57,964 nt of DNA from an uncultured Alphaproteobacteria bacterium (GCA_963541805.1 CAUTVF010000001.1:1-57964); one strand, 5' to 3'; positions 17,244 through 40,431 are shown, numbered from the stretch's first letter. The notes: generated by a model not told the origin, from the letters alone. Program-made: numbers and translations.

Positions 17244-17272
17244 ATGGTAAAGTATTAGTAATATTTTGTCAA
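17244..17272 (-). promoter_or_regulatory. Candidate sigma70-type promoter of the str/S10/spc/alpha super-operon
   Basis: On the minus strand, TTGACA (17267-17272), a 17-nt spacer, then TACCAT (17244-17249). This implies a 5'UTR of about 150 nt before rpsL. Confidence 0.45.
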
Positions 17273-19088: not shown

Positions 19089-19697
19089 TTAAAATTTAAT
19101 TACTAAACCAACTGTTGGAGAAAAACTTGATTTCATATCACTGTATCCAGTAAATACAATTTGATTATACATAATTTTCAAATCAAGATTTGAATTTAAA
19201 TGCAACCCAACACCAAATCCAATTTTAAATCCATTTCCTGTAGTTCTAGTTGTATTATTAAAAGAATATGCTTTTGCAGTCTGCCTTAAAAATCCTGCAG
19301 AAAAAATTCCATCACAATACTTATGTAATTTTAAATAAGGAGCAATACCAAAACCAAACGAATAAAAACTATTCATAATATGTCCGAACGTTGGTGATGT
19401 TATCATTTTACCTTTAAAAGATGGAGCATATTGATAAAATACTTCCAATTTAAAAATATTGTCAACATCAACTCCGATTAAAAAATTTTCCGCTACAAAA
19501 TTATTTGAGAATTTAGATTCTAAATTTTTCAATTTATAATCGATAACATTATATGCACCTTCAAAACCGATATAATAATTAAACATACCAGGTTGATAAT
19601 CATCATATTCTCTGCGGTATGATTGTGCACCTGTGCAGATATCCGCAAAACTTAACATAAATATCATAATATTAACAATACATATATTTATCTTCAT
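19089..19697 (-). CDS. Small outer-membrane beta-barrel protein
   Basis: Signal peptide MKINICIVNIMIFMLSFA, alternating aromatic strands and a C-terminal ...VGLVIKF. The ATG at 19695-19697 lies 5 nt after GGGAG. Confidence 0.5.
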   Translation of the reverse strand: MKINICIVNIMIFMLSFADICTGAQSYRREYDDYQPGMFNYYIGFEGAYNVIDYKLKNLESKFSNNFVAENFLIGVDVDNIFKLEVFYQYAPSFKGKMITSPTFGHIMNSFYSFGFGIAPYLKLHKYCDGIFSAGFLRQTAKAYSFNNTTRTTGNGFKIGFGVGLHLNSNLDLKIMYNQIVFTGYSDMKSSFSPTVGLVIKF

Positions 19698-19721
19698 TTT
19701 TTCTCCCATTTCATAATTATA

Positions 19722-20420
19722 TTAGTTCTTCTTTTGTGCCACTTCTCCAAGAGATGTATTAAATTTTTTTAAAATTCTGCGACGCAGCTCATCATTCTTA
19801 GTATCCATATTTTCCGATTTTACTTCTTGTTTTTCAATTACTTTTACATTATCCATAGATCCCATATTTAATGGATCTTGATTGTTATTCTGCATCCTTT
19901 GCACAACAGAATACGCATCAGAATTCGTAATAGATTTTGGCAACGGTATTTCAGGATTATTTTTTTCAGCATTCTGCTGCAAATTATGTTTTTTATCTGC
20001 ATTTGCTAAATTAGCTGGTTCAGACTTTACAATTACATCAATGTTTTGTTTTTTTATTTGGACATTATTACCTTTCCCTGTCCGTTTTTTTAAAGTATCC
20101 AATTGATAAAATTGTTTTTGCTTTACCGATTTAGAACAACAAAATGAATGTAAAAATTTGTAGAAATAAATAACTGATAAAAAAGTTACACTTAAAAAAA
20201 CAAAAATCAAACCAAATGATAAAGAGGTAAAAGCAATACCTAACATTATATTCGCATGCAATATTTTGTTTGCAATTAACAAAATATTATTTACCACATC
20301 ATGTGACAAAATATTAATCTGCCAAAGATTCCAGTATAAAATATCGAACAAAAATAATAATAACGCAGATAATACGCATCCGAATAACATACTGATGATT
20401 ATATTTAATACTTTTCTCAT
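19722..20420 (-). CDS. Hypothetical membrane protein (2-3 TM helices plus Asn/Lys/Gln-rich tail)
   Basis: 232-aa ORF with a hydrophobic N-terminal third and a low-complexity C-terminus. No family recognised. Confidence 0.5.
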   Translation of the reverse strand: MRKVLNIIISMLFGCVLSALLLFLFDILYWNLWQINILSHDVVNNILLIANKILHANIMLGIAFTSLSFGLIFVFLSVTFLSVIYFYKFLHSFCCSKSVKQKQFYQLDTLKKRTGKGNNVQIKKQNIDVIVKSEPANLANADKKHNLQQNAEKNNPEIPLPKSITNSDAYSVVQRMQNNNQDPLNMGSMDNVKVIEKQEVKSENMDTKNDELRRRILKKFNTSLGEVAQKKN

Positions 20421-20428
20421 TACTCGAC

Positions 20429-20457
20429 AATATAGACATAAAATATTATTTTGTCAA
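20429..20457 (-). promoter_or_regulatory. Candidate promoter giving a leaderless or near-leaderless mRNA for 19722-20420
   Basis: On the minus strand, TTGACA (20452-20457), 17 nt, then TATATT (20429-20434). Only 8 nt separate the -10 from the ATG, with no SD. Confidence 0.4.
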
Positions 20458-20492
20458 GATTATTAGTATGATAATACAATCATAAATATTTA

Positions 20493-20521
20493 TTGACAAA
20501 AAAATTTTATTTGTTTAACTA
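20493..20521 (+). promoter_or_regulatory. Cassette promoter P1 (paralog A)
   Basis: TTGACAAAA..TTTGTTTA spacer, TAACTA at 17-nt spacing, AGGAGG SD. The ATG is 61 nt from the first base of the -35. Confidence 0.55.
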
Positions 20522-20553
20522 TGTAAGTACAGATCTATTTTTAAGGAGGCCTT

Positions 20554-21048
20554 ATGGCATTATATGTCAATTGCGACTTAAGTGCAGATGGATGGATTGG
20601 GCAGTATACGTATGGTAGACGAATACTTGTAATCAATAATCTTAATAAAAAATTTGCAGCAAATCATAAGATTTATTGTTCTACAAGATATACATCTACA
20701 TCACAATTCGGAGCAATATTTATAAATCCGACTCAAAAAGATACTTTTAAAAGCTGGCGAACTTTGGGATTATTTCTGATAAACTCCAGAGCTCAACATG
20801 GTTACCGCGTACTTGTAAACCCAAATGACAGACGAGGAATTAAAAGATATGAAATATTTCATAATTTTAGTTATCAGGGAGTCAAATTATGCAGTAAAAT
20901 TGGACTTTACAAGGTTGGAGTATGTATCGTAACGGAGCCAGAAAGCAAAGTAGACCAAAAAAGTTACTGGCAATTAACCAAAAAAGGTTGGGTTTTCCTC
21001 GGACATATCCTACCAACCCAGTACAAAGGTTTCATTCCCAGATATTAA
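20554..21048 (+). CDS. Unrecognised-family protein, paralog A (164 aa)
   Basis: Homologous to the ORFs at 21367 and 22019 through shared blocks LYVNxDL, GLFLI, GYRVLVNPND, GLYKVGVCIVT and YWQLTKKGW. It has a strong SD and its own terminator. Confidence 0.75.
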   Translation: MALYVNCDLSADGWIGQYTYGRRILVINNLNKKFAANHKIYCSTRYTSTSQFGAIFINPTQKDTFKSWRTLGLFLINSRAQHGYRVLVNPNDRRGIKRYEIFHNFSYQGVKLCSKIGLYKVGVCIVTEPESKVDQKSYWQLTKKGWVFLGHILPTQYKGFIPRY

Positions 21049-21068
21049 AAGCACTCACCACACCCATA

Positions 21069-21095
21069 TACCTCCGATTTCTCGGAGGTATTTTT
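21069..21095 (+). terminator. Rho-independent terminator of paralog A
   Basis: TACCTCCGA-tttc-TCGGAGGTA followed by TTTTT. Confidence 0.7.
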
Positions 21096-21118
21096 AAATC
21101 ATAAATATCCTAAAAGAT

Positions 21119-21208
21119 TGGCGGAGGGACTGGGATTCGAACCCAGGGCACCAATTTCTCGGTGCACGGATTAGCAATCCGCTGTATTAACCGCTCTACC
21201 ACCCCTCC
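21119..21208 (-). tRNA. tRNA-Ser (anticodon GCU)
   Basis: The reverse complement GGAGGGGTGGTAGAGCGG...GCGGATTGCTAATCCGT... has a long variable arm, T-loop TTCGAAT and an encoded CCA. Confidence 0.9.
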
Positions 21209-21304
21209 ACACAAATTACTAACGTTTCGGAGTAAATCAAATTTATAAAAATAAGTCAAGCCGTTTTAGTATTAATTAAATTATCTATTTTATTAATATT
21301 TAAT

Positions 21305-21333
21305 TTGACAAAAAATTATTATTTGTTTATCAT
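21305..21333 (+). promoter_or_regulatory. Cassette promoter P2 (paralog B)
   Basis: TTGACA, 17 nt (ending ATTTGTT), TATCAT, then GGAGG SD. The ATG is 62 nt from the -35. Confidence 0.6.
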
Positions 21334-21366
21334 ACAAACATACATTTATTTTTATGGAGGATTTTT

Positions 21367-21879
21367 ATGATATTGTACGTTAATCGTGATTTAATTTCAG
21401 AGCCATTGAAAAATGCCTGGTTTGGAAAGTATGCAGATGGATTTGAACATAAGGTTGTCATTGACCTTGATTACAATATACCAAAAGTATTAGCAAATCA
21501 AAAACTCAAATGCAATATTATATATGTTTCAGATTCTATATGTGGATATATCGGGATTACTAGATCCAAAAAAATTAAAATCCATGATATCAGGGGTTTA
21601 TTTTTTATAGACGCCGCATCTATATCAAACAAAGGATACGCTGTACTTGTCGATCCGAAGGATAAAAAAGGCATAAAAAGAGTTGAATTATTTCATGATT
21701 ACTCTAGAAATAGTAAAGGATATAGTAAATTTGGTCTTTATAAACCTGGTGCATGTATTGTAACCAATCCAAACAGTAAAAAACATCCACCACAATATTG
21801 GAAACTGACTAAAAAAGGATGGGTATCTCTTGGTAACAAATTACCACAGGAATATAAAGATTTTATACTATGTTATTAA
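21367..21879 (+). CDS. Unrecognised-family protein, paralog B (170 aa)
   Basis: MILYVNRDL..., GLFFID, GYAVLVDPKD, GLYKPGACIVT, YWKLTKKGW. The C-terminal ~80 aa are about half identical to paralog A by eye. Confidence 0.75.
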   Translation: MILYVNRDLISEPLKNAWFGKYADGFEHKVVIDLDYNIPKVLANQKLKCNIIYVSDSICGYIGITRSKKIKIHDIRGLFFIDAASISNKGYAVLVDPKDKKGIKRVELFHDYSRNSKGYSKFGLYKPGACIVTNPNSKKHPPQYWKLTKKGWVSLGNKLPQEYKDFILCY

Positions 21880-21900
21880 TTCATTACTCACTGTAAAAAA

Positions 21901-21928
21901 TACCTTCGAATCCGGAGGTATTTTTTTT
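21901..21928 (+). terminator. Rho-independent terminator of paralog B
   Basis: TACCTTCG-aatc-CGGAGGTA followed by T8. The sequence is related to the paralog A terminator. Confidence 0.7.
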
Positions 21929-21957
21929 ATCCATAAACTTTTTTACTAAAATTTAAT

Positions 21958-21985
21958 TTGACAAAAGTTAATATTTGTTTATATT
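21958..21985 (+). promoter_or_regulatory. Cassette promoter P3 (paralog C)
   Basis: TTGACA, 16 nt (ATATTTGTT), TATATT, then AGGAGG SD. The ATG is 61 nt from the -35. Confidence 0.55.
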
Positions 21986-22018
21986 ATGAAGCATATACAT
22001 ATTTTTAGGAGGTTTTTT

Positions 22019-22642
22019 ATGAAACTATTTGTTAACCGGAATTTAAGTAAAGATGTGGAATGTTGGGAAGGTAAATTTACTCCACACTTGTTTCCCATTT
22101 TAAGGGTATACAATAAGTTGGGAAAAGGAATTAAAGCAAATGAAGCCATAGATTGTGATGTTCATTGCGAAATTCCATTTTATGGGCCGAGCATATCAGA
22201 AATTAGCATCATACCCGAAAATAAAAAAAGGGATGATATAATCGGATTATTTTTGATGAATTCGACCAACCTTTATGGATACAGAATGCTTGCTCGTCCT
22301 GACGATCCTATGGATCTATTAATAAAATATAGAAATTATAGAATATTTTGCGACGGTGTTTCGGGAACTAGCAAGTCTAAGAAATTTATATGCAGCAAAT
22401 ATGGTATATATCGACTTGGAACTTGTATAGTAACCCAAGAAAAAGAATTAAAATATTGGGAGCTAACAGAATCTGGTTGGGAAGCTACTAAAACTAAACC
22501 TCTAAAATATAATGACTATATTTTGATGGATGACGACCTGACTAGTGTAGCTAGGCAATTAAACGGAGAAGTGGTAGAACAGGAAGAGATTCATTCATTT
22601 TTCAATATTTCAGCAGATTTTTTAGTTTCAAATATTAGATAA
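22019..22642 (+). CDS. Unrecognised-family protein, paralog C (207 aa, acidic C-terminal extension)
   Basis: MKLFVNRNL..., GLFLMN, GYRMLARPDD, GIYRLGTCIVT, YWELTESGW. Start set at the ATG at 22019, 6 nt after AGGAGG; the track start at 21986 lies inside the -10 region. Confidence 0.7.
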   Translation: MKLFVNRNLSKDVECWEGKFTPHLFPILRVYNKLGKGIKANEAIDCDVHCEIPFYGPSISEISIIPENKKRDDIIGLFLMNSTNLYGYRMLARPDDPMDLLIKYRNYRIFCDGVSGTSKSKKFICSKYGIYRLGTCIVTQEKELKYWELTESGWEATKTKPLKYNDYILMDDDLTSVARQLNGEVVEQEEIHSFFNISADFLVSNIR

Positions 22643-22674
22643 ATGATAAATTTAACATTATCACATCTGCATGA

Positions 22675-22701
22675 CCTGGCTTTCAAAAGCCAGGTTTTTT
22701 T
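22675..22701. terminator. Hairpin terminator between convergent paralog C and ftsH
   Basis: CCTGGCTT-tcaa-AAGCCAGG followed by T7. Confidence 0.65.
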
Positions 22702-22705
22702 AAGG

Positions 22706-24592
22706 TTAACTTTCTTTTTTAGTTTTTTTCTTAACAGAAATTTTTGAATCCACTTCTGATTTTTTCTTGTCAAAAGTGCCATCAACAATTGCTTGTAATT
22801 CTTCTCCTGTTAATGTCTCAAATTCAATTAAAGCCTCAGCAATTTTTCCTGTTTCAGATTTATACTTCTTAATTATACTCGTTGCCTCTTTAAATCCTTC
22901 ATCAATCATTGATGCAATTTCTGTATCAATTAATTTTGCAGTTTCATCGGATATATTTTTACGCTCACTTGATGTATGATAACCAAGAGAAGCCTCCTCA
23001 AAATATATCGGCCCTAATTTTTTAGAAAAACCCCACTTTGTAACTGCAGAACGTGCCATGTGCGTTGCATATTCTATATCACTTGATGCTCCAGATGTAA
23101 TTTTATCATTTCCAAAAAATATACCTTCTGAAACACGGCCACCAAATGCAATTACAATATTTGCCTTCAATTCAGAAATAGACAATGACACTTTATCATG
23201 CAAAGGCAAACGTTGGACCATTCCCAAAGCATCCCCACGTGGAATTATTGTTGCTTTATGAATTGGATCACTATGCTTCATTTTCAATGCACAAATTGCA
23301 TGTCCCGCTTCATGATATGCCGTCAATTTAATTTCTTCTGGACGCATTGTCATTGATCTGCGCTCTGCTCCCATCATTATTTTATCACGTGTGTCTTCTA
23401 AATCTTCTTGTGTAACTCCAATATGATTACGGCGCGCTGCAAGAAGCGCGCTCTCATTGATTAAATTTGATAACTCCGCACCAGAAAATCCAGGTGTACC
23501 GCGAGCAATACTATCTAATCTGACCCCATCAGCAATTTTGATATTTTTAGCATGGATATTTAAAATTTCCTCTCTACCTTTTAAATCAGGAAGAGGAACA
23601 TAAATTTGACGATCAAAGCGTCCAGGACGAAGTAATGCATCATCCAATACATCTGCTCTATTTGTTGCAGCAATGATTATTACACCATCATTTTCATCAA
23701 ATCCATCCATTTCAACAAGTAACTGATTCAATGTCTGTTCTCGCTCATCATTACCACCACCATATCCAACCCCTCTGTGACGTCCAACAGCATCTATTTC
23801 ATCAATAAAAATAATACATGGAGCAGAATGTTTCCCTTGATCGAATAAAGCACGAACACGAGACGCCCCAACACCAACAAACATCTCAACAAAATCAGAT
23901 CCGGATATTGTGAAAAATGGAACATTTGCTTCCCCCGCAATTGCACGTGCAAGCAAAGTTTTTCCAGTACCAGGGGGCCCAATTAACAAAACACCTTTTG
24001 GAATACGTGCACCAATCTTTGTAAATTTTTTTGGAGTTTTAAGGAAATCTATTATCTCTTCTAAATCTGCTTTTGCTTCATTGATACCCGCGACATTTTT
24101 AAATGTAACTTTTTTATCATTTCCTGCCAATTTCAAGCGCAATCTCATTATACCGCCAAATCTATCACCTCTCATAGAGCGAAGCATTGTAAATAACATA
24201 ATTCCGATAAAAACAATCCAAAGCAAATTAGTAATGCTATTAAAAGTAAATTCAGACGGATTTTTAATTTCAACTTTCACTTTACTAGTATCAAGTGTTT
24301 GAAAAAACACAGTATTCAAAGACACCGTTGATTTAAATTTTTTACCACTTTTCAACTCACCTTTAATATTGTTTTCTTTTATCACTATACTTTTTATTTT
24401 TCCATTCTTTGCATATGCCAGAACATCCGAATAAGCCAATTCTTTTATAGGTTCAGACTTTAACTTTCTATTCTTAAAAGTTTCGTACAAACTGGAGCTC
24501 CCCAATAACAGAGACACAGTTAAAACAAACAACAACCATTTTGGCAATTTCGGATTATTAAAAACCTTATTAAACTGTGATTTATTTTTCAT
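22706..24592 (-). CDS. ftsH: ATP-dependent zinc metalloprotease FtsH
   Basis: [26 protein letters not shown] and HEAGHA zinc motif; two N-terminal TM helices. Confidence 0.98.
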
Positions 24593-35481: not shown

Positions 35482-37641
35482 TTATACTGAGATCTTATTA
35501 TTCTTTAACCTAATCCACTCTGGTACTGCAGGGGCGGCTGGCATCTGTGATTTTGCAAGCATTGCTTTATCTTTATAAAACAGTGGAGAATCCGCCTTAA
35601 TTGGATAATTTGTATATCCCTGATATAAAATCCATTGCTTTCCAAATTCCACATTTAAAAATTTATTTGCAGATAATATCTCATCTTTAGGTTTCAACTT
35701 TTCTTCAACTGCTCCATAACTAAGTGATCCACGTACCCCACCTTTTATACTTGTTTCAACAATGGTTTCAGATCCTCCCATACCTGCAAATCTTGCCGCA
35801 GTTACATCGTTATTTTGTGTTAAAATAACCTTTGCAGCAGTTGTCGACATTAAAATTTCAACCGCATCTTTTCCATATCCCGCCTCGATTTGTCCCAAAT
35901 CCTGAGCAATTAATAAATACGAAACTTTCATTCCACGACCAACTGCAGGGCCGTCCATTACCGCCTCTAATTTTGGCATTTGTGGAAATTCATCCAAAAC
36001 AAACAATGTTGGATATGGGCCCATTGTTCCATTGCGTCCAACATGATTCGGTGGATTTGATATAAGAAATTTACTCATTAACTCGATAAAAACACCACTG
36101 ATTGTATTTAATGCTTTCGCATCAGCCTGATTAACCGACAAATATATTGTAACAGGTTTCATTTTACCATCTTTCGGATCAATCATACCCCGTAAATCTT
36201 TAAATGAAATATCCGATGCACATGTTCTTTCTCTCACCGCAGAATTTTTAAAAATTGACGTATTTGTTAAAACATTTGATATAATCGAACCACGCTCTTT
36301 TTCTGGAGTATTTGCCAATTGATTTAATTCCAAAACAGATCGATGAGAATATGAATATTTTATCGCTTCTTTTGTAGCATTTTCAAAAACATCGTGAACG
36401 ATATCTGTATTAAATGCAGCCATCTGATCACCCTGTTGTTTTCGTTTATTTAATTCTTCTGCTGCTAAAATTTGTGCCTCTGACAACCAATCAAGCAACA
36501 TTGGAAGCGATGCCTCACGTCCAATCCAAATTTTCGGAATATTCGCCCACGTCCCAACGGGTACATAATTATTAATTGTTAATTTTTTTTCTTGAAGCAT
36601 TCGAAGGGCCCCTTTTGCATACGGATCATCCATCACCATATAATAACCGGCCAATAGTTTTGCATCTTCCTCAGAAAAATTACCATTTTTTAATTTGTTA
36701 AAAAAGTAATCATTTGCAACAGCTTTTTCACATTTACTTGACATAAAATGCAACATCCCAGCCAAAGCATTTCTACCAGCACTACTCCAATGGGGATCGG
36801 CCGATGATCCTTTTGCATCCTGGATTAAAACATTTGTAATAGAATCAATATACATATCTCTCTCCGGCCCAACGGGTGGAATTAATTCAGGAGACAGCGG
36901 ATTCCAACGAGGATAATAAATTCCCTTATCTGGATTATCAGATTCTCCCCAGTTAATTATAAAAACTGGCCCTAAAGTTGCACGATATCCAGACGTTGTA
37001 TAACAAAGTTCTGGTTTGGGGTCGTTTACAATCATGCTAACATCTGTACACTCAAATATTGTTGGTACAACGACTGCAGTTGTTTTACCAGTTCCCGGCG
37101 GAGCACAGACAAGAGCAGACAAAGTTTCTTTCATTTTTAACAATTTATCCTTAAATTTTCCAAGCACGATAATTTTACCATCAAACAATCCCATTTTTTC
37201 AATGTCTTCTTCTTGTGCTGTTCTACCAGATTTATATATATCAAAATCACGATAAGGTTGTGAGCCTGCCATTGTTTCAAAAAACACGATAAAATATACA
37301 AATGGGATAAATGGAAACCATGAAACCCCAGATCCTAATACTAATCCTTCAGCCCAATTTATATAATATGCGATAATTGAAACCCCAAAACTGTTCCATA
37401 AATCACGAAAATATTGAAGAAAAACAGGAGAATTAATTAAAGATAAATTAAAATTATTTGTATGTAAATATGCGATTGGCAATGCAACACATGCCAATAA
37501 ATATGTTGAAACGATCAAAGATGAATATGCCAAATAACGATATAAAATTGATTTGTATCGCTCTGCAGAAGGGCCACTGTTAAATGCTGGAGAAATTGTG
37601 CGATATAAAAATGCAAATACTGGTAATTTGAAAATAAACAT
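35482..37641 (-). CDS. virD4: Type IV secretion coupling protein, VirD4/TraG family
   Basis: N-terminal TM helices, Walker A VCAPPGTGKTTAVVVPT, Walker B-like TLFVLDEFPQMPKL and YLLIAQDLGQIEAGYGKD. Confidence 0.85.
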   Translation of the reverse strand: MFIFKLPVFAFLYRTISPAFNSGPSAERYKSILYRYLAYSSLIVSTYLLACVALPIAYLHTNNFNLSLINSPVFLQYFRDLWNSFGVSIIAYYINWAEGLVLGSGVSWFPFIPFVYFIVFFETMAGSQPYRDFDIYKSGRTAQEEDIEKMGLFDGKIIVLGKFKDKLLKMKETLSALVCAPPGTGKTTAVVVPTIFECTDVSMIVNDPKPELCYTTSGYRATLGPVFIINWGESDNPDKGIYYPRWNPLSPELIPPVGPERDMYIDSITNVLIQDAKGSSADPHWSSAGRNALAGMLHFMSSKCEKAVANDYFFNKLKNGNFSEEDAKLLAGYYMVMDDPYAKGALRMLQEKKLTINNYVPVGTWANIPKIWIGREASLPMLLDWLSEAQILAAEELNKRKQQGDQMAAFNTDIVHDVFENATKEAIKYSYSHRSVLELNQLANTPEKERGSIISNVLTNTSIFKNSAVRERTCASDISFKDLRGMIDPKDGKMKPVTIYLSVNQADAKALNTISGVFIELMSKFLISNPPNHVGRNGTMGPYPTLFVLDEFPQMPKLEAVMDGPAVGRGMKVSYLLIAQDLGQIEAGYGKDAVEILMSTTAAKVILTQNNDVTAARFAGMGGSETIVETSIKGGVRGSLSYGAVEEKLKPKDEILSANKFLNVEFGKQWILYQGYTNYPIKADSPLFYKDKAMLAKSQMPAAPAVPEWIRLKNNKISV

Positions 37642-38897: not shown

Positions 38898-39626
38898 ATG
38901 TTATGGACTATCAAGAATGGCTATCGTATTAAAGTATTAAAGGCATTGATGGGTAGTATTAATTTTTCAAAAGACAAGAAAAATATACTTTCAACAGTAA
39001 TTGCACGATATATTGAATACTACGATGGACGTATTCCACGTGTGATCATTCATGAAATGAGCGATTATGTTGAGTATGCATGTCAGTTGGAACCGATTTT
39101 GTATCCTTTATTATCTGATGGGATAACAAGACAGGAAGAGGCACTGATACTAAACTTCGCTGTCATCTTTGGATATCAAGAGGTTGTAAAGATTTTACTA
39201 AAAGCTAATGTAAAACAGGATAGCTTTTTGATGACAAAGCCATATAAATTGCTTGGCACTGATTTATATCCAATAAATTTTGCCTACTACAATGGGGATG
39301 TAGGAATGACGAGATTATTAATGGAACATTGTCCTAAAGTAAAATATGCGGTACATGTTAGTGGAAGCGACAATATAATTCGAGTTACTACCCCTATGTT
39401 TGGGAGGGAAACAATTTACAAAAACTTCAAACCTAAAGATGAAGTAATAAAAAAAATTGTTAAGACTTTGAATATTCAGTTTCCTTATTTATGTGCAGAT
39501 AGGGCATCTAGAAATAAAGTTTTTTATATGCTCCAAGATAATAGAGAAATAATATACTCTCTTAAAGGTGGATATATTCCCAAAAATGCCTCGTTTACTC
39601 TTGATGCGTCATATTCTTGTAATTAG
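38898..39626 (+). CDS. Ankyrin-repeat protein (at least 2 ANK repeats)
   Basis: ALILNFAVIFGYQEVVKILLKANVKQD and DLYPINFAYYNGDVGMTRLLMEHCPKV fit the ANK consensus. No signal peptide. Confidence 0.65.
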   Translation: MLWTIKNGYRIKVLKALMGSINFSKDKKNILSTVIARYIEYYDGRIPRVIIHEMSDYVEYACQLEPILYPLLSDGITRQEEALILNFAVIFGYQEVVKILLKANVKQDSFLMTKPYKLLGTDLYPINFAYYNGDVGMTRLLMEHCPKVKYAVHVSGSDNIIRVTTPMFGRETIYKNFKPKDEVIKKIVKTLNIQFPYLCADRASRNKVFYMLQDNREIIYSLKGGYIPKNASFTLDASYSCN

Positions 39627-39696: not shown

Positions 39697-40431
39697 TTAA
39701 AATAGACCAGATAGCGATGCCGCGATTCTCTCCTTCACCGCCTTTGATCCTTCTTGTTCTGTTAAATTAACCATATTGGATACAGCATGTAATACAGTTG
39801 TATAATACTTCCTGTTTTTCTTTTCATATGAAGATGAAACAACTCCACCCTCTGCTCCTTGTTGCTGAACCTGAATATTTGAAGTTTTCACAACAGATTT
39901 GGTCTTTTCTCCCAAACGAATATCAACAGTTACATCATAATATCCATCTTTTGTATTGGCATCCAATGCCATTGATGCAATGCCTCCAGCGACCGCACCT
40001 GTTAAAGTGGACAAAACCTGACCTCTACCACCACCAATTGTTGATCCTGCAATGCCACCAACAACAGCTCCAGGGATTGCAGATTCTTTACCATCAATTT
40101 TTTTACTTGTTAAAACAGCATTTTTAACATTAACTTGCATAATGTAATAAGCTTTATCTGGATCTTGCTCAATTTTATACCCCTTACTTACCAAATCCCC
40201 AATAATAAATTTATGCAAATCACTGAAATTAGTGTTTCCTGAGGTATTTCGCATTTGTACAAGTATTGTTTGATTACTTGGAGAAACTGGATCCAACCAA
40301 ATAGTATTTGACATCGTAACTTTTACATCCATTTCATCTTTGCTCATTCTTGTATACATTGCCCCACAAGAAACGGTTACAAAAGCAAATCCGACAAGCA
40401 TAAGATTTTTTAAACTGACTTTTTTATTCAT
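39697..40431 (-). CDS. traT: TraT-like surface-exclusion / complement-resistance lipoprotein
   Basis: Lipobox VTVSCGAMY followed by MSNTIWLDP...ILVQMRNTS...KGYKIEQDPDKAYYIMQVNV, a Gly-rich central segment and ...NMVNL..., collinear with F-plasmid TraT as recalled. Confidence 0.78.
   Translation of the reverse strand: MNKKVSLKNLMLVGFAFVTVSCGAMYTRMSKDEMDVKVTMSNTIWLDPVSPSNQTILVQMRNTSGNTNFSDLHKFIIGDLVSKGYKIEQDPDKAYYIMQVNVKNAVLTSKKIDGKESAIPGAVVGGIAGSTIGGGRGQVLSTLTGAVAGGIASMALDANTKDGYYDVTVDIRLGEKTKSVVKTSNIQVQQQGAEGGVVSSSYEKKNRKYYTTVLHAVSNMVNLTEQEGSKAVKERIAASLSGLF

Follow-up and report, generated by a model that had tools for sequence, protein, structure and literature searches.

What brings three divergent copies of a small gene, assignable to no described family, to lie in tandem on a bacterial chromosome, and what might their products do? 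We addressed this question in a stretch of 57,964 nucleotides (nt) from an uncultured Alphaproteobacteria bacterium (GCA_963541805.1, CAUTVF010000001.1:1-57964), called the window below, in which three such genes, paralogs A, B and C, lie in a row with a tRNA-Ser gene between the first two. Sequence comparison assigns A, B and C, as a divergent bacterial branch, to a protein family that is phage-borne and undescribed, and they arose by in-place duplication of a complete monocistronic cassette. The explanation that we favor, at a probability of about 0.45, is that the duplicated cassettes are phage accessory genes exapted as cytoplasmic binding modules.

The paralogs and their phage-borne relatives

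The proteins are encoded at the following positions (aa, amino acids; pI, isoelectric point; pLDDT, predicted local distance difference test; dN/dS, ratio of nonsynonymous to synonymous substitution rates).

20554-21048, plus strand: paralog A, 164 aa; paralogy by BLASTP, AlphaFold model at pLDDT 88.8, dN/dS 0.11
21367-21879, plus strand: paralog B, 170 aa; paralogy by BLASTP, 96% aa identity to B of the related lineage L007 (see below)
22019-22522, plus strand: core domain of paralog C, aa 1-168, homologous to A and B
22523-22642, plus strand: acidic C-terminal extension of paralog C, lineage-specific, 39 aa, pI 4.1, plus the stop codon

The homology of these open reading frames (ORFs), first proposed in a sequence-only reading of the window, is borne out by BLASTP, with 46% identity between A and B (E 3e-41), 35% between A and C (E 3e-20) and 32% between B and C (E 3e-14). 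Their alignment has 44 invariant columns, which include all the blocks listed in that reading. ORF C as a whole spans 22019-22642 and encodes 207 aa. We place its start at 22019 and not at the upstream ATG at 21986 given by a mechanical ORF list, because an AGGAGG (22007-22012) lies 7 nt upstream of 22019, because the N-terminus M-x-L-[YF]-V-N aligns there with those of A and B, and because transcription from the -10 box at 21980-21985 would begin past 21986. The acidic tail of C, put at ~40 aa in the sequence-only reading, measures 39 aa. The three proteins had been described as free of signal peptides and transmembrane (TM) segments; consistent with this, their highest mean Kyte-Doolittle hydropathy over 19 residues is 1.19, and no hydrophobic segment is present. 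The proposed concentration of divergence in the N-terminal half is found for A and B (39% identity versus 59% in the C-terminal half) but does not extend to the pairs with C (32-35% versus 37-39%). An internal duplication within the fold was considered and rejected, the two halves aligning with an hhalign probability of 0.8%. No further paralog copies or remnants were found in the 58-kb window.

The view that no described domain can be assigned to these proteins has held up. A, B, C and phage members of the family gave sub-threshold noise only against Pfam, NCBIfam, PHROGs and PADLOC; with the PADLOC models, which cover defence systems and not counter-defence, A, B, C and five phage members had no match at E up to 1. 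Two family profiles searched against PDB sequences with hmmsearch returned nothing below E 0.7, and a literature search yielded nothing relevant to the family. The family is therefore undescribed in every library queried, although a tandem, lineage-specific array of phage-related paralogs is in itself ordinary.

Relatives emerged at great search depth. A profile of the three sequences run against 5.8 billion protein clusters recovered only the A, B and C types themselves. An exhaustive HMMER search of 1.84 billion representatives (clustered at 50% identity) with the A/B/C profile gave 21 matches, with E values down to 1e-15; the representatives of the phage branch found with this A/B/C-only profile align over positions ~1-160, at E 9e-10 to 8e-4. 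With iteration of the profile the set grew to 51 clusters and finally to 152 (90% identity); not one of them carries a Pfam domain or a credible name. Family members are ~150 aa long, and the few that come from named metagenome-assembled genomes (MAGs) belong to Verrucomicrobia, Firmicutes and an archaeon.

All the contexts that were fetched for the wider relatives, ten distinct ones, are tailed-phage contigs, and seven of the ten are replication, recombination or early modules. The neighbors there include PDDEXK_1 nucleases (three contigs), DnaB with RusA and Dam, primase with DNA polymerase A, and SNF2 helicases (two contigs), and in a Mu-like early region the member lies downstream of Gam. 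Some members are located at the edges of structural modules, by TerL and portal or baseplate J. Capsid and Mu F genes, too, occur in the phage contexts. In IMG/VR, five loci carry a family member, with the phage-type alignment used for confirmation. In an all-versus-all BLASTP of the phage neighbors, the family member was the sole gene in common and no neighbor was conserved, which argues that it is a stand-alone accessory gene moving between unrelated phages. PHROG annotation of the neighbors was uninformative. Searches by tblastn gave no match for A, P0014 or P0074 in cultured phages and none for P0074 in plasmids, and a scan of JGI metagenome contigs found no relatives.

Several members deserve separate mention. 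P0006 (161 aa; a cluster of 10 members, some on contigs of 62-84 kb) and P0010 (152 aa) are intermediate between the branches, matching the A/B/C profile at E 1e-15 and 5e-7, respectively, and both are without the polar motifs of the phage branch described below; they may mark further bacterial lineages with the family. In P0127 (325 aa) and P0024 (234 aa), one or two N-terminal repeats of ~90 aa are fused to the family domain. P0087 carries the JGI label 'RecA/RadA recombinase', with no NCBIfam support and no precomputed Pfam domain.

The phage branch (127 sequences) has ~49 columns that are at least 80% conserved. What A, B, C and their orthologs keep of these is a core of hydrophobic, glycine and aromatic positions, N6, L9, W14, G72, F74, Y84, S114, G117, Y119, G122, L141, T142, G145 and W146. 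At nearly all columns of the polar motifs of the phage branch, NGATRR, KGNHSF, GGYGNSxS and YKNR, they have unrelated residues. The C-terminus differs as well. The phage branch ends in an acidic tail with a hydrophobic end (consensus E-V-x-x-S-E-I-E-E-[IV]); 106 of 116 phage members have at least three Asp or Glu among the last 12 residues, and the median net charge is -4. A and B lack an acidic tail and end in QYKGFIPRY and EYKDFILCY, respectively, while the 39-aa extension of C, Glu-rich with a hydrophobic end, is unrelated to the phage tail. The median pI of phage members is 5.8, as against 9.9 for A and 9.6 for B. We also considered the basic pI of A and B as a sign of nucleic-acid binding and discarded it, since the median of the window proteome is 9.1-9.5. 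The bacterial branch thus appears to have kept the fold core and lost the polar motifs and the acidic tail. We infer that the phage protein has a ligand- or nucleic-acid-binding site formed by its Gly/Asn/Arg/Lys/His/Tyr motifs, and the bacterial paralogs would then be the scaffold without this predicted site.

The AlphaFold model of protein A (51-sequence alignment) reached a pLDDT of 88.8 and a predicted template-modeling score of 0.86, with ~13 beta strands and one short helix; that of the phage member P0014 (97-sequence alignment) reached 94.6 and 0.88, with a comparable strand pattern plus a C-terminal helix. As far as the predicted strand patterns show, strand order looks comparable in the two models, ~13 strands each. 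Foldseek found no match at E < 0.001 in PDB and BFVD. The best PDB matches had E values of 0.11 and 0.42 with template-modeling scores of at most 0.3, and the best BFVD match (94 columns) had an E of 8.5e-3 and a score of 0.29. The models therefore suggest an all-beta fold without a recognisable relative within PDB and BFVD.

Set beside the phage-borne family (P0014, P0074, P0097), A, B and C are like it in full-length profile homology (E 1e-15 to 1e-4 with the A/B/C-only query), length and core residues, and also in the all-beta pattern of ~13 strands, as predicted by the models. They differ from it in being without the polar motifs and, for A and B, without the acidic tail. In addition, they are chromosomal, triplicated and individually promoted, unlike the phage members, which are single accessory genes.

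These features bring up a role in DNA metabolism, in which the phage protein would be an accessory that binds single-stranded or other DNA, or a partner of such a binder, and the bacterial copies would be nucleic-acid-binding or nucleoid-associated proteins. The location of seven of ten phage members in replication, recombination or early modules fits this idea, as do the acidic tail and the conserved aromatic and basic residues, which recall single-stranded DNA-binding protein (SSB), gp2.5 and gp32. A crude test of 15 phage locus fragments detected no canonical SSB, sub-threshold Foldseek matches include the oligonucleotide/oligosaccharide-binding (OB) fold domain I of RuvA, and the promoters of the three bacterial genes resemble that of the rpsL operon. 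More closely, the phage branch alone shares with SSB (PF00436), T7 gp2.5 and T4 gp32 a short acidic tail, hydrophobic at its end, after a beta-rich core of ~140 aa, an acidic pI and the replication- or recombination-module location. However, no OB-fold or SSB match was obtained by sequence profile or by structure (template-modeling scores of at most 0.29, E > 1; 0.23-0.29 and E > 2 for RuvA domain I, the best OB-like match). The family is rare, sporadic and without a conserved neighbor, far rarer than a replication SSB, which is more in line with an accessory gene than with a core role in replication. A basic pI, as in A and B, is proteome background, A, B and C have lost the basic and aromatic motifs, and A and B have lost the tail. 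We consider a DNA-metabolism role unlikely, with some real chance left to it.

A different lead for the phage branch comes from Tad1, Tad2 and Acb2, which are nucleotide 'sponges', small stand-alone phage accessory or counter-defence proteins. The phage branch is like this type in size (~100-150 aa), in being a single-gene unit with no conserved partner, and in its sporadic presence in early or accessory regions of unrelated phages. By analogy, its Gly/Arg/Lys/His-rich motifs would be compatible with the binding of a phosphate ligand, as in the sponges. It is unlike them in that no sequence match and no Foldseek match in PDB and BFVD was obtained, and the bacterial copies are without the motifs.

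Expression signals and the unit of duplication

Each paralog lies between its own predicted expression signals.

20493-20521, plus strand: cassette A promoter, TTGACA, a 17-18 nt spacer containing TATTTGTTTA, and a weak -10 (TAACTA/AACTAT)
20543-20549, plus strand: cassette A Shine-Dalgarno AAGGAGG, 4 nt upstream of the ATG
21068-21096, plus strand: cassette A intrinsic terminator, 10-bp stem and T-run, homologous to that of cassette B
21305-21333, plus strand: cassette B promoter, TTGACA-17-TATCAT, 11 of 12 consensus positions
21356-21360, plus strand: cassette B Shine-Dalgarno GGAGG, by sequence
21895-21926, plus strand: cassette B intrinsic terminator, a hairpin plus a T-run
21958-21985, plus strand: cassette C promoter, TTGACA-16-TATATT, 11 of 12 consensus positions
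22007-22012, plus strand: cassette C Shine-Dalgarno AGGAGG, by sequence
22673-22701, plus strand: terminator hairpin between the convergent C and ftsH, not homologous to those of A and B

The ~85 nt 5' of the start codons are homologous among A, B, C and the orthologs in a related MAG, with pairwise identities of 69-83%. Invariant in these upstream regions are TTGAC, TATTTGTTTA and ATTTTTA(T)GGAGG. TATTTGTTTA occurs in the three cassettes only in the whole window, and the pattern TTGAC-N(10-14)-TATTTGTTTA matches A and B (the gap in C is 9 nt) against a chance expectation of 0.01. A promoter with TTGACA and a -10 box, a Shine-Dalgarno sequence and a terminator had been claimed for every copy. 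This is correct for all three, except that A, which shares the -35 box, has a -10 so weak that its promoter was missed by the consensus scan.

A stable hairpin with a T-run follows each gene; the energies are -15.2, -15.6 and -18.1 kcal/mol and the z-scores -6.5, -4.9 and -4.5 for A, B and C, respectively. The A and B hairpins are homologous, as had been noted, and have the common stem ATACCTYCG...CGGAGGTAT; that of C is unrelated to them and is shared with the convergent ftsH. The duplication unit was accordingly the whole cassette, in agreement with the sequence-only reading, in so far as it included the promoter, the 5' untranslated region (5'UTR) and the coding sequence in all three copies and the terminator for A and B only. 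Synonymous sites are saturated between the paralogs (proportion of synonymous differences, pS, 0.65-0.77), and within the cassettes no DNA, the coding sequence included, is as well conserved as the promoter and 5'UTR. Such conservation beside saturated coding DNA argues for functional constraint on the expression signals. Taken together, A, B and C are predicted to be autonomous monocistronic cassettes that are transcribed separately.

The form TTGACAAAAWATTA is also present in the promoter of the divergent TM-protein gene (20433-20457, minus strand) and upstream of the rpsL operon (17244-17272, minus strand); its sites correspond to the inverted-repeat matches I4, I11 and I19. It may be a strong-promoter form of the host genome.

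Constraint, probable exchange and loss among related lineages

Three lineages were compared with the window: the diverged MAG L007 (contig CAUTSU010000023.1), L023/L024 and L021/L022. The gene order in L007, TM-protein gene, A, tRNA-Ser, B and ftsH, is that of the window minus C. The two genomes are well separated at ftsH (88% aa identity, pS 0.55, synonymous substitution rate dS 0.98, dN/dS 0.08), and A has 77% aa identity, pS 0.60, dS 1.2 and dN/dS 0.11. A low dN/dS was also found for C, 0.30 overall between the window and L021/L022. Both A and C are thus under purifying selection, which for A speaks against the earlier notion of a diversifying family. The two genes to the left of A evolve faster in their proteins: the gene of an outer-membrane protein (OMP) beta-barrel (19089-19709, minus strand) has 40% aa identity to L007, pS 0.54, dS 0.94 and dN/dS 0.54, and the TM-protein gene (19722-20420, minus strand) has 40% aa identity, pS 0.59, dS 1.16 and dN/dS 0.44. 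This fast evolution argues that the whole interval from murI to ftsH is a variable segment.

B follows a different course. It has 96% aa identity to the B of L007, with a pS and a dS of 0.010 each; 1 synonymous and 7 nonsynonymous differences give a dN/dS of 1.76, too few differences for interpretation. This near-identity belongs to a block bounded on the left by the tRNA gene:

21119-21208, minus strand: tRNA-Ser(GCU), by ARAGORN and Rfam; it marks the left edge of the near-identical block shared between lineages

The block extends from inside the tRNA (~21130) to just past the B terminator (~21945) and is 97-100% identical between the window and L007. Its bounds are sharp in a 60-nt sliding comparison, with flanks that are 48-88% identical. 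L023 and L024 have the L007-type junction from the region downstream of A into the tRNA, and their tRNA, B and start of C are 99.4% identical to the window. In L021/L022, identity to the window is 100% over the 3' end of B and the B-C spacer, with a pS of 0.49 at ftsH, and C is a mosaic with a pS of 0.02 mid-gene and 0.32 at codons 120-190. Positive selection on C was considered and rejected, since dN/dS is 0.24-0.50 in every segment and the divergent patches are recombination mosaics (pS 0.02-0.32).

On the simplest reading of these sequences, the tRNA-B block, and partly C, spread lately by recombination among co-occurring diverged lineages, which makes the block a candidate for a gene-specific recombination sweep. 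Alternatively, the near-identity of B might be a chimera of metagenome assembly, and two of the three assemblies that show it may derive from one sample. We regard a chimera as less likely, given that the near-identity recurs in three assemblies and that B carries 8 substitutions.

Copy-number variation at this locus had been predicted and is found: C is deleted in L007, which retains only its last ~60 nt and the terminator. At the deletion junction, directly after the B terminator (L007:3621-3665), lies a diverged copy of ~45 nt of the tRNA-Ser 3' half, TGGAGGGACTGGGATTCGAGCCCAGGGCACTAATTTATCGAT. This pseudo-tRNA is fused to the ~60-nt remnant of C and lies 5' of the intact tRNA; a canonical attL/attR pair would be ordered differently. 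One possibility is that it goes back to an ancestral repeat unit of tRNA plus cassette, followed by deletions.

The suggestion that the tRNA-Ser served as a landing site for accessory DNA finds hints only, in codon usage and in the pseudo-tRNA half of L007. Its position antisense between A and B is confirmed, as ARAGORN and Rfam both place it at 21119-21208 on the minus strand. An Rfam scan of 20300-22800 found the tRNA alone; a match to 'Plastid-psbl-rps4' (21122-21174, plus strand; 46.7 bits against a gathering score of 68) is an artefact of the antisense strand of the tRNA. The codon adaptation index (CAI), calculated with the ribosomal-protein and EF-G genes of the window as reference set, is 0.47 for A, 0.57 for B and 0.53 for C, the three lowest of 35 window genes; the others, plus-strand genes included in the comparison, range over 0.56-0.72. 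The GC content of the array (0.28-0.37) is inside the local range (window GC 31.7%), and no att repeats or compositional island were found in the window. Nor does the window have an integrase, phage or mobile-element gene near the array or a tRNA-derived direct repeat flanking it.

Might the three genes then be functionless, decaying leftovers of a phage or island that inserted long ago at the tRNA-Ser? Their low CAI values, the deletion of C and the pseudo-tRNA-Ser half in L007, and the excess of nonsynonymous over synonymous differences between B alleles (7 vs 1) would be expected of decay. Yet A, B and C have uninterrupted frames in every assembly, with dN/dS values of 0.11 (A) and 0.30 (C). 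The coding sequence is less conserved than the promoter and 5'UTR, the terminators are intact, and the arrangement is kept across lineages with dS ~1. We find decay scarcely credible.

Possible roles and the surroundings of the array

In the explanation that we favor, phage accessory genes were exapted by the alphaproteobacterium, and each copy would be transcribed alone from the common promoter type. The products would be cytoplasmic, non-enzymatic binding modules. The ancestral phage protein probably bound a phosphate-containing ligand or nucleic acid, presumably via its Gly/Asn/Arg/Lys/His/Tyr-rich motifs. The role of A, B and C could lie in conflict with phages or mobile elements, for example in neutralising a phage or mobile-element factor by binding it. 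The phage origin, the gene-specific spread, the presence or absence of C and the atypical codon usage suggest such a role rather than housekeeping or host manipulation. We put it forward tentatively, as possible but doubtful. A bolder version seems quite unlikely to us, namely that a phage protein with a new fold, acting in counter-defence or host takeover and binding a phosphate-containing ligand or nucleic acid via its Gly/Asn/Arg/Lys/His motifs, was captured by the alphaproteobacterium, triplicated as self-contained cassettes and stripped of its site to give new binding proteins, with B now sweeping by recombination across lineages that have a pS of ~0.5 at ftsH. The probability that remains after all the readings given here goes to a role not yet considered.

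Several points count against the favored explanation. The conflict role is drawn by analogy, from the phage origin, the gene-specific sweep and the presence or absence of C. No defence-system gene or prophage lies near the array, and the family is without any characterised member. A housekeeping-like role, too, would agree with the strong purifying selection on A and the stable synteny. Transfer may have run from phage to bacterium or in the reverse direction. The statement that the fold has no structural relative covers PDB and BFVD, and the possible origin of two assemblies from one sample, mentioned above, bears on the sweep.

An orphan array of immunity proteins, left over from a polymorphic-toxin locus, had also been proposed. 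A, B and C are like such arrays in being tandem, divergent, small cytoplasmic paralogs, here with their own promoters, and in their variable copy number, C being lost in L007. They are unlike them in the absence of a toxin partner or an immunity domain. No toxin, Rhs, CdiA, type VI or type VII secretion system gene lies within 10 kb on either side, where the neighbors are murI, the OMP beta-barrel protein, the TM protein, ftsH and tilS. The proteins match no Pfam immunity family (SUKH, Imm, Tsi and others) and no fold in PDB. The relatives are phage-borne and likewise not beside toxins, and the orthologs are at fixed positions across lineages, in fixed synteny. The immunity proposal therefore finds no positive support in adjacency or in domain content, either here or in the phage contexts, and we judge it very improbable.

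A further proposal was that they are effectors of a type IV secretion system (T4SS) that enter a eukaryotic host after recognition by the VirD4 coupling protein (35482-37641). The VirD4/TraG-type, ankyrin-repeat-like and TraT-like lipoprotein genes of the window suggest a host-associated lifestyle. In addition, the paralogs are lineage-restricted and without signal peptide, the tail of C is Glu-rich with a hydrophobic end, and C occurs in some lineages but is missing from another. The claim that they are VirD4 substrates is nevertheless not upheld by linkage, as VirD4 is 13 kb off, behind the housekeeping genes ftsH, tilS, infC, queH, mlaA, pheST and rplT. All the wider relatives with an examined context are in tailed-phage contigs, and the few members from named MAGs belong to Verrucomicrobia, Firmicutes and an archaeon, which is unlike a domain that targets eukaryotes. 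Pfam shows no eukaryote-like domain, A and B seem to lack a C-terminal translocation signal, and A is under strong purifying, not diversifying, selection. An effector role has no positive support and is improbable in our view.

Provided that the models are right, the family has no described relative in sequence or solved structure and is common to uncultivated phages of very different hosts and to the core chromosome of a small-genome alphaproteobacterium. It would offer a natural experiment in exaptation, with a scaffold that has a polar site in phages and is without it in three bacterial copies. The near-identity of the tRNA-B block, if it reflects a sweep, would mean that DNA exchange is ongoing among these uncultured bacteria. 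The practical value is modest before a function is known, as thousands of phage families are uncharacterised; the finding would gain weight with proof that the phage branch is a new fold for counter-defence or DNA metabolism, or with confirmation of the sweep of B.

Near-identical contigs (98.4-99.8% identity) from five metagenome assemblies place the array within the core chromosome, and the synteny is shared by three assemblies and the diverged MAG. To its left are the S10/spc ribosomal operon with fusA, rpsG and rpsL, then birA and murI, the OMP beta-barrel gene and the TM-protein gene. The array itself, A, tRNA-Ser, B and C, is followed by ftsH, tilS, infC, queH and mlaA, and further right by pheST, rplT, the VirD4-type coupling protein, a glycosyltransferase, a weak ankyrin-repeat protein and a TraT-like lipoprotein. 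No other T4SS genes were found in the window; the VirD4/TraG-type coupling protein gene at 35482-37641 stands alone between rplT and the glycosyltransferase, and the weak ankyrin-repeat protein (38898-39626) and the TraT-like lipoprotein (39697-40431) are encoded near it.

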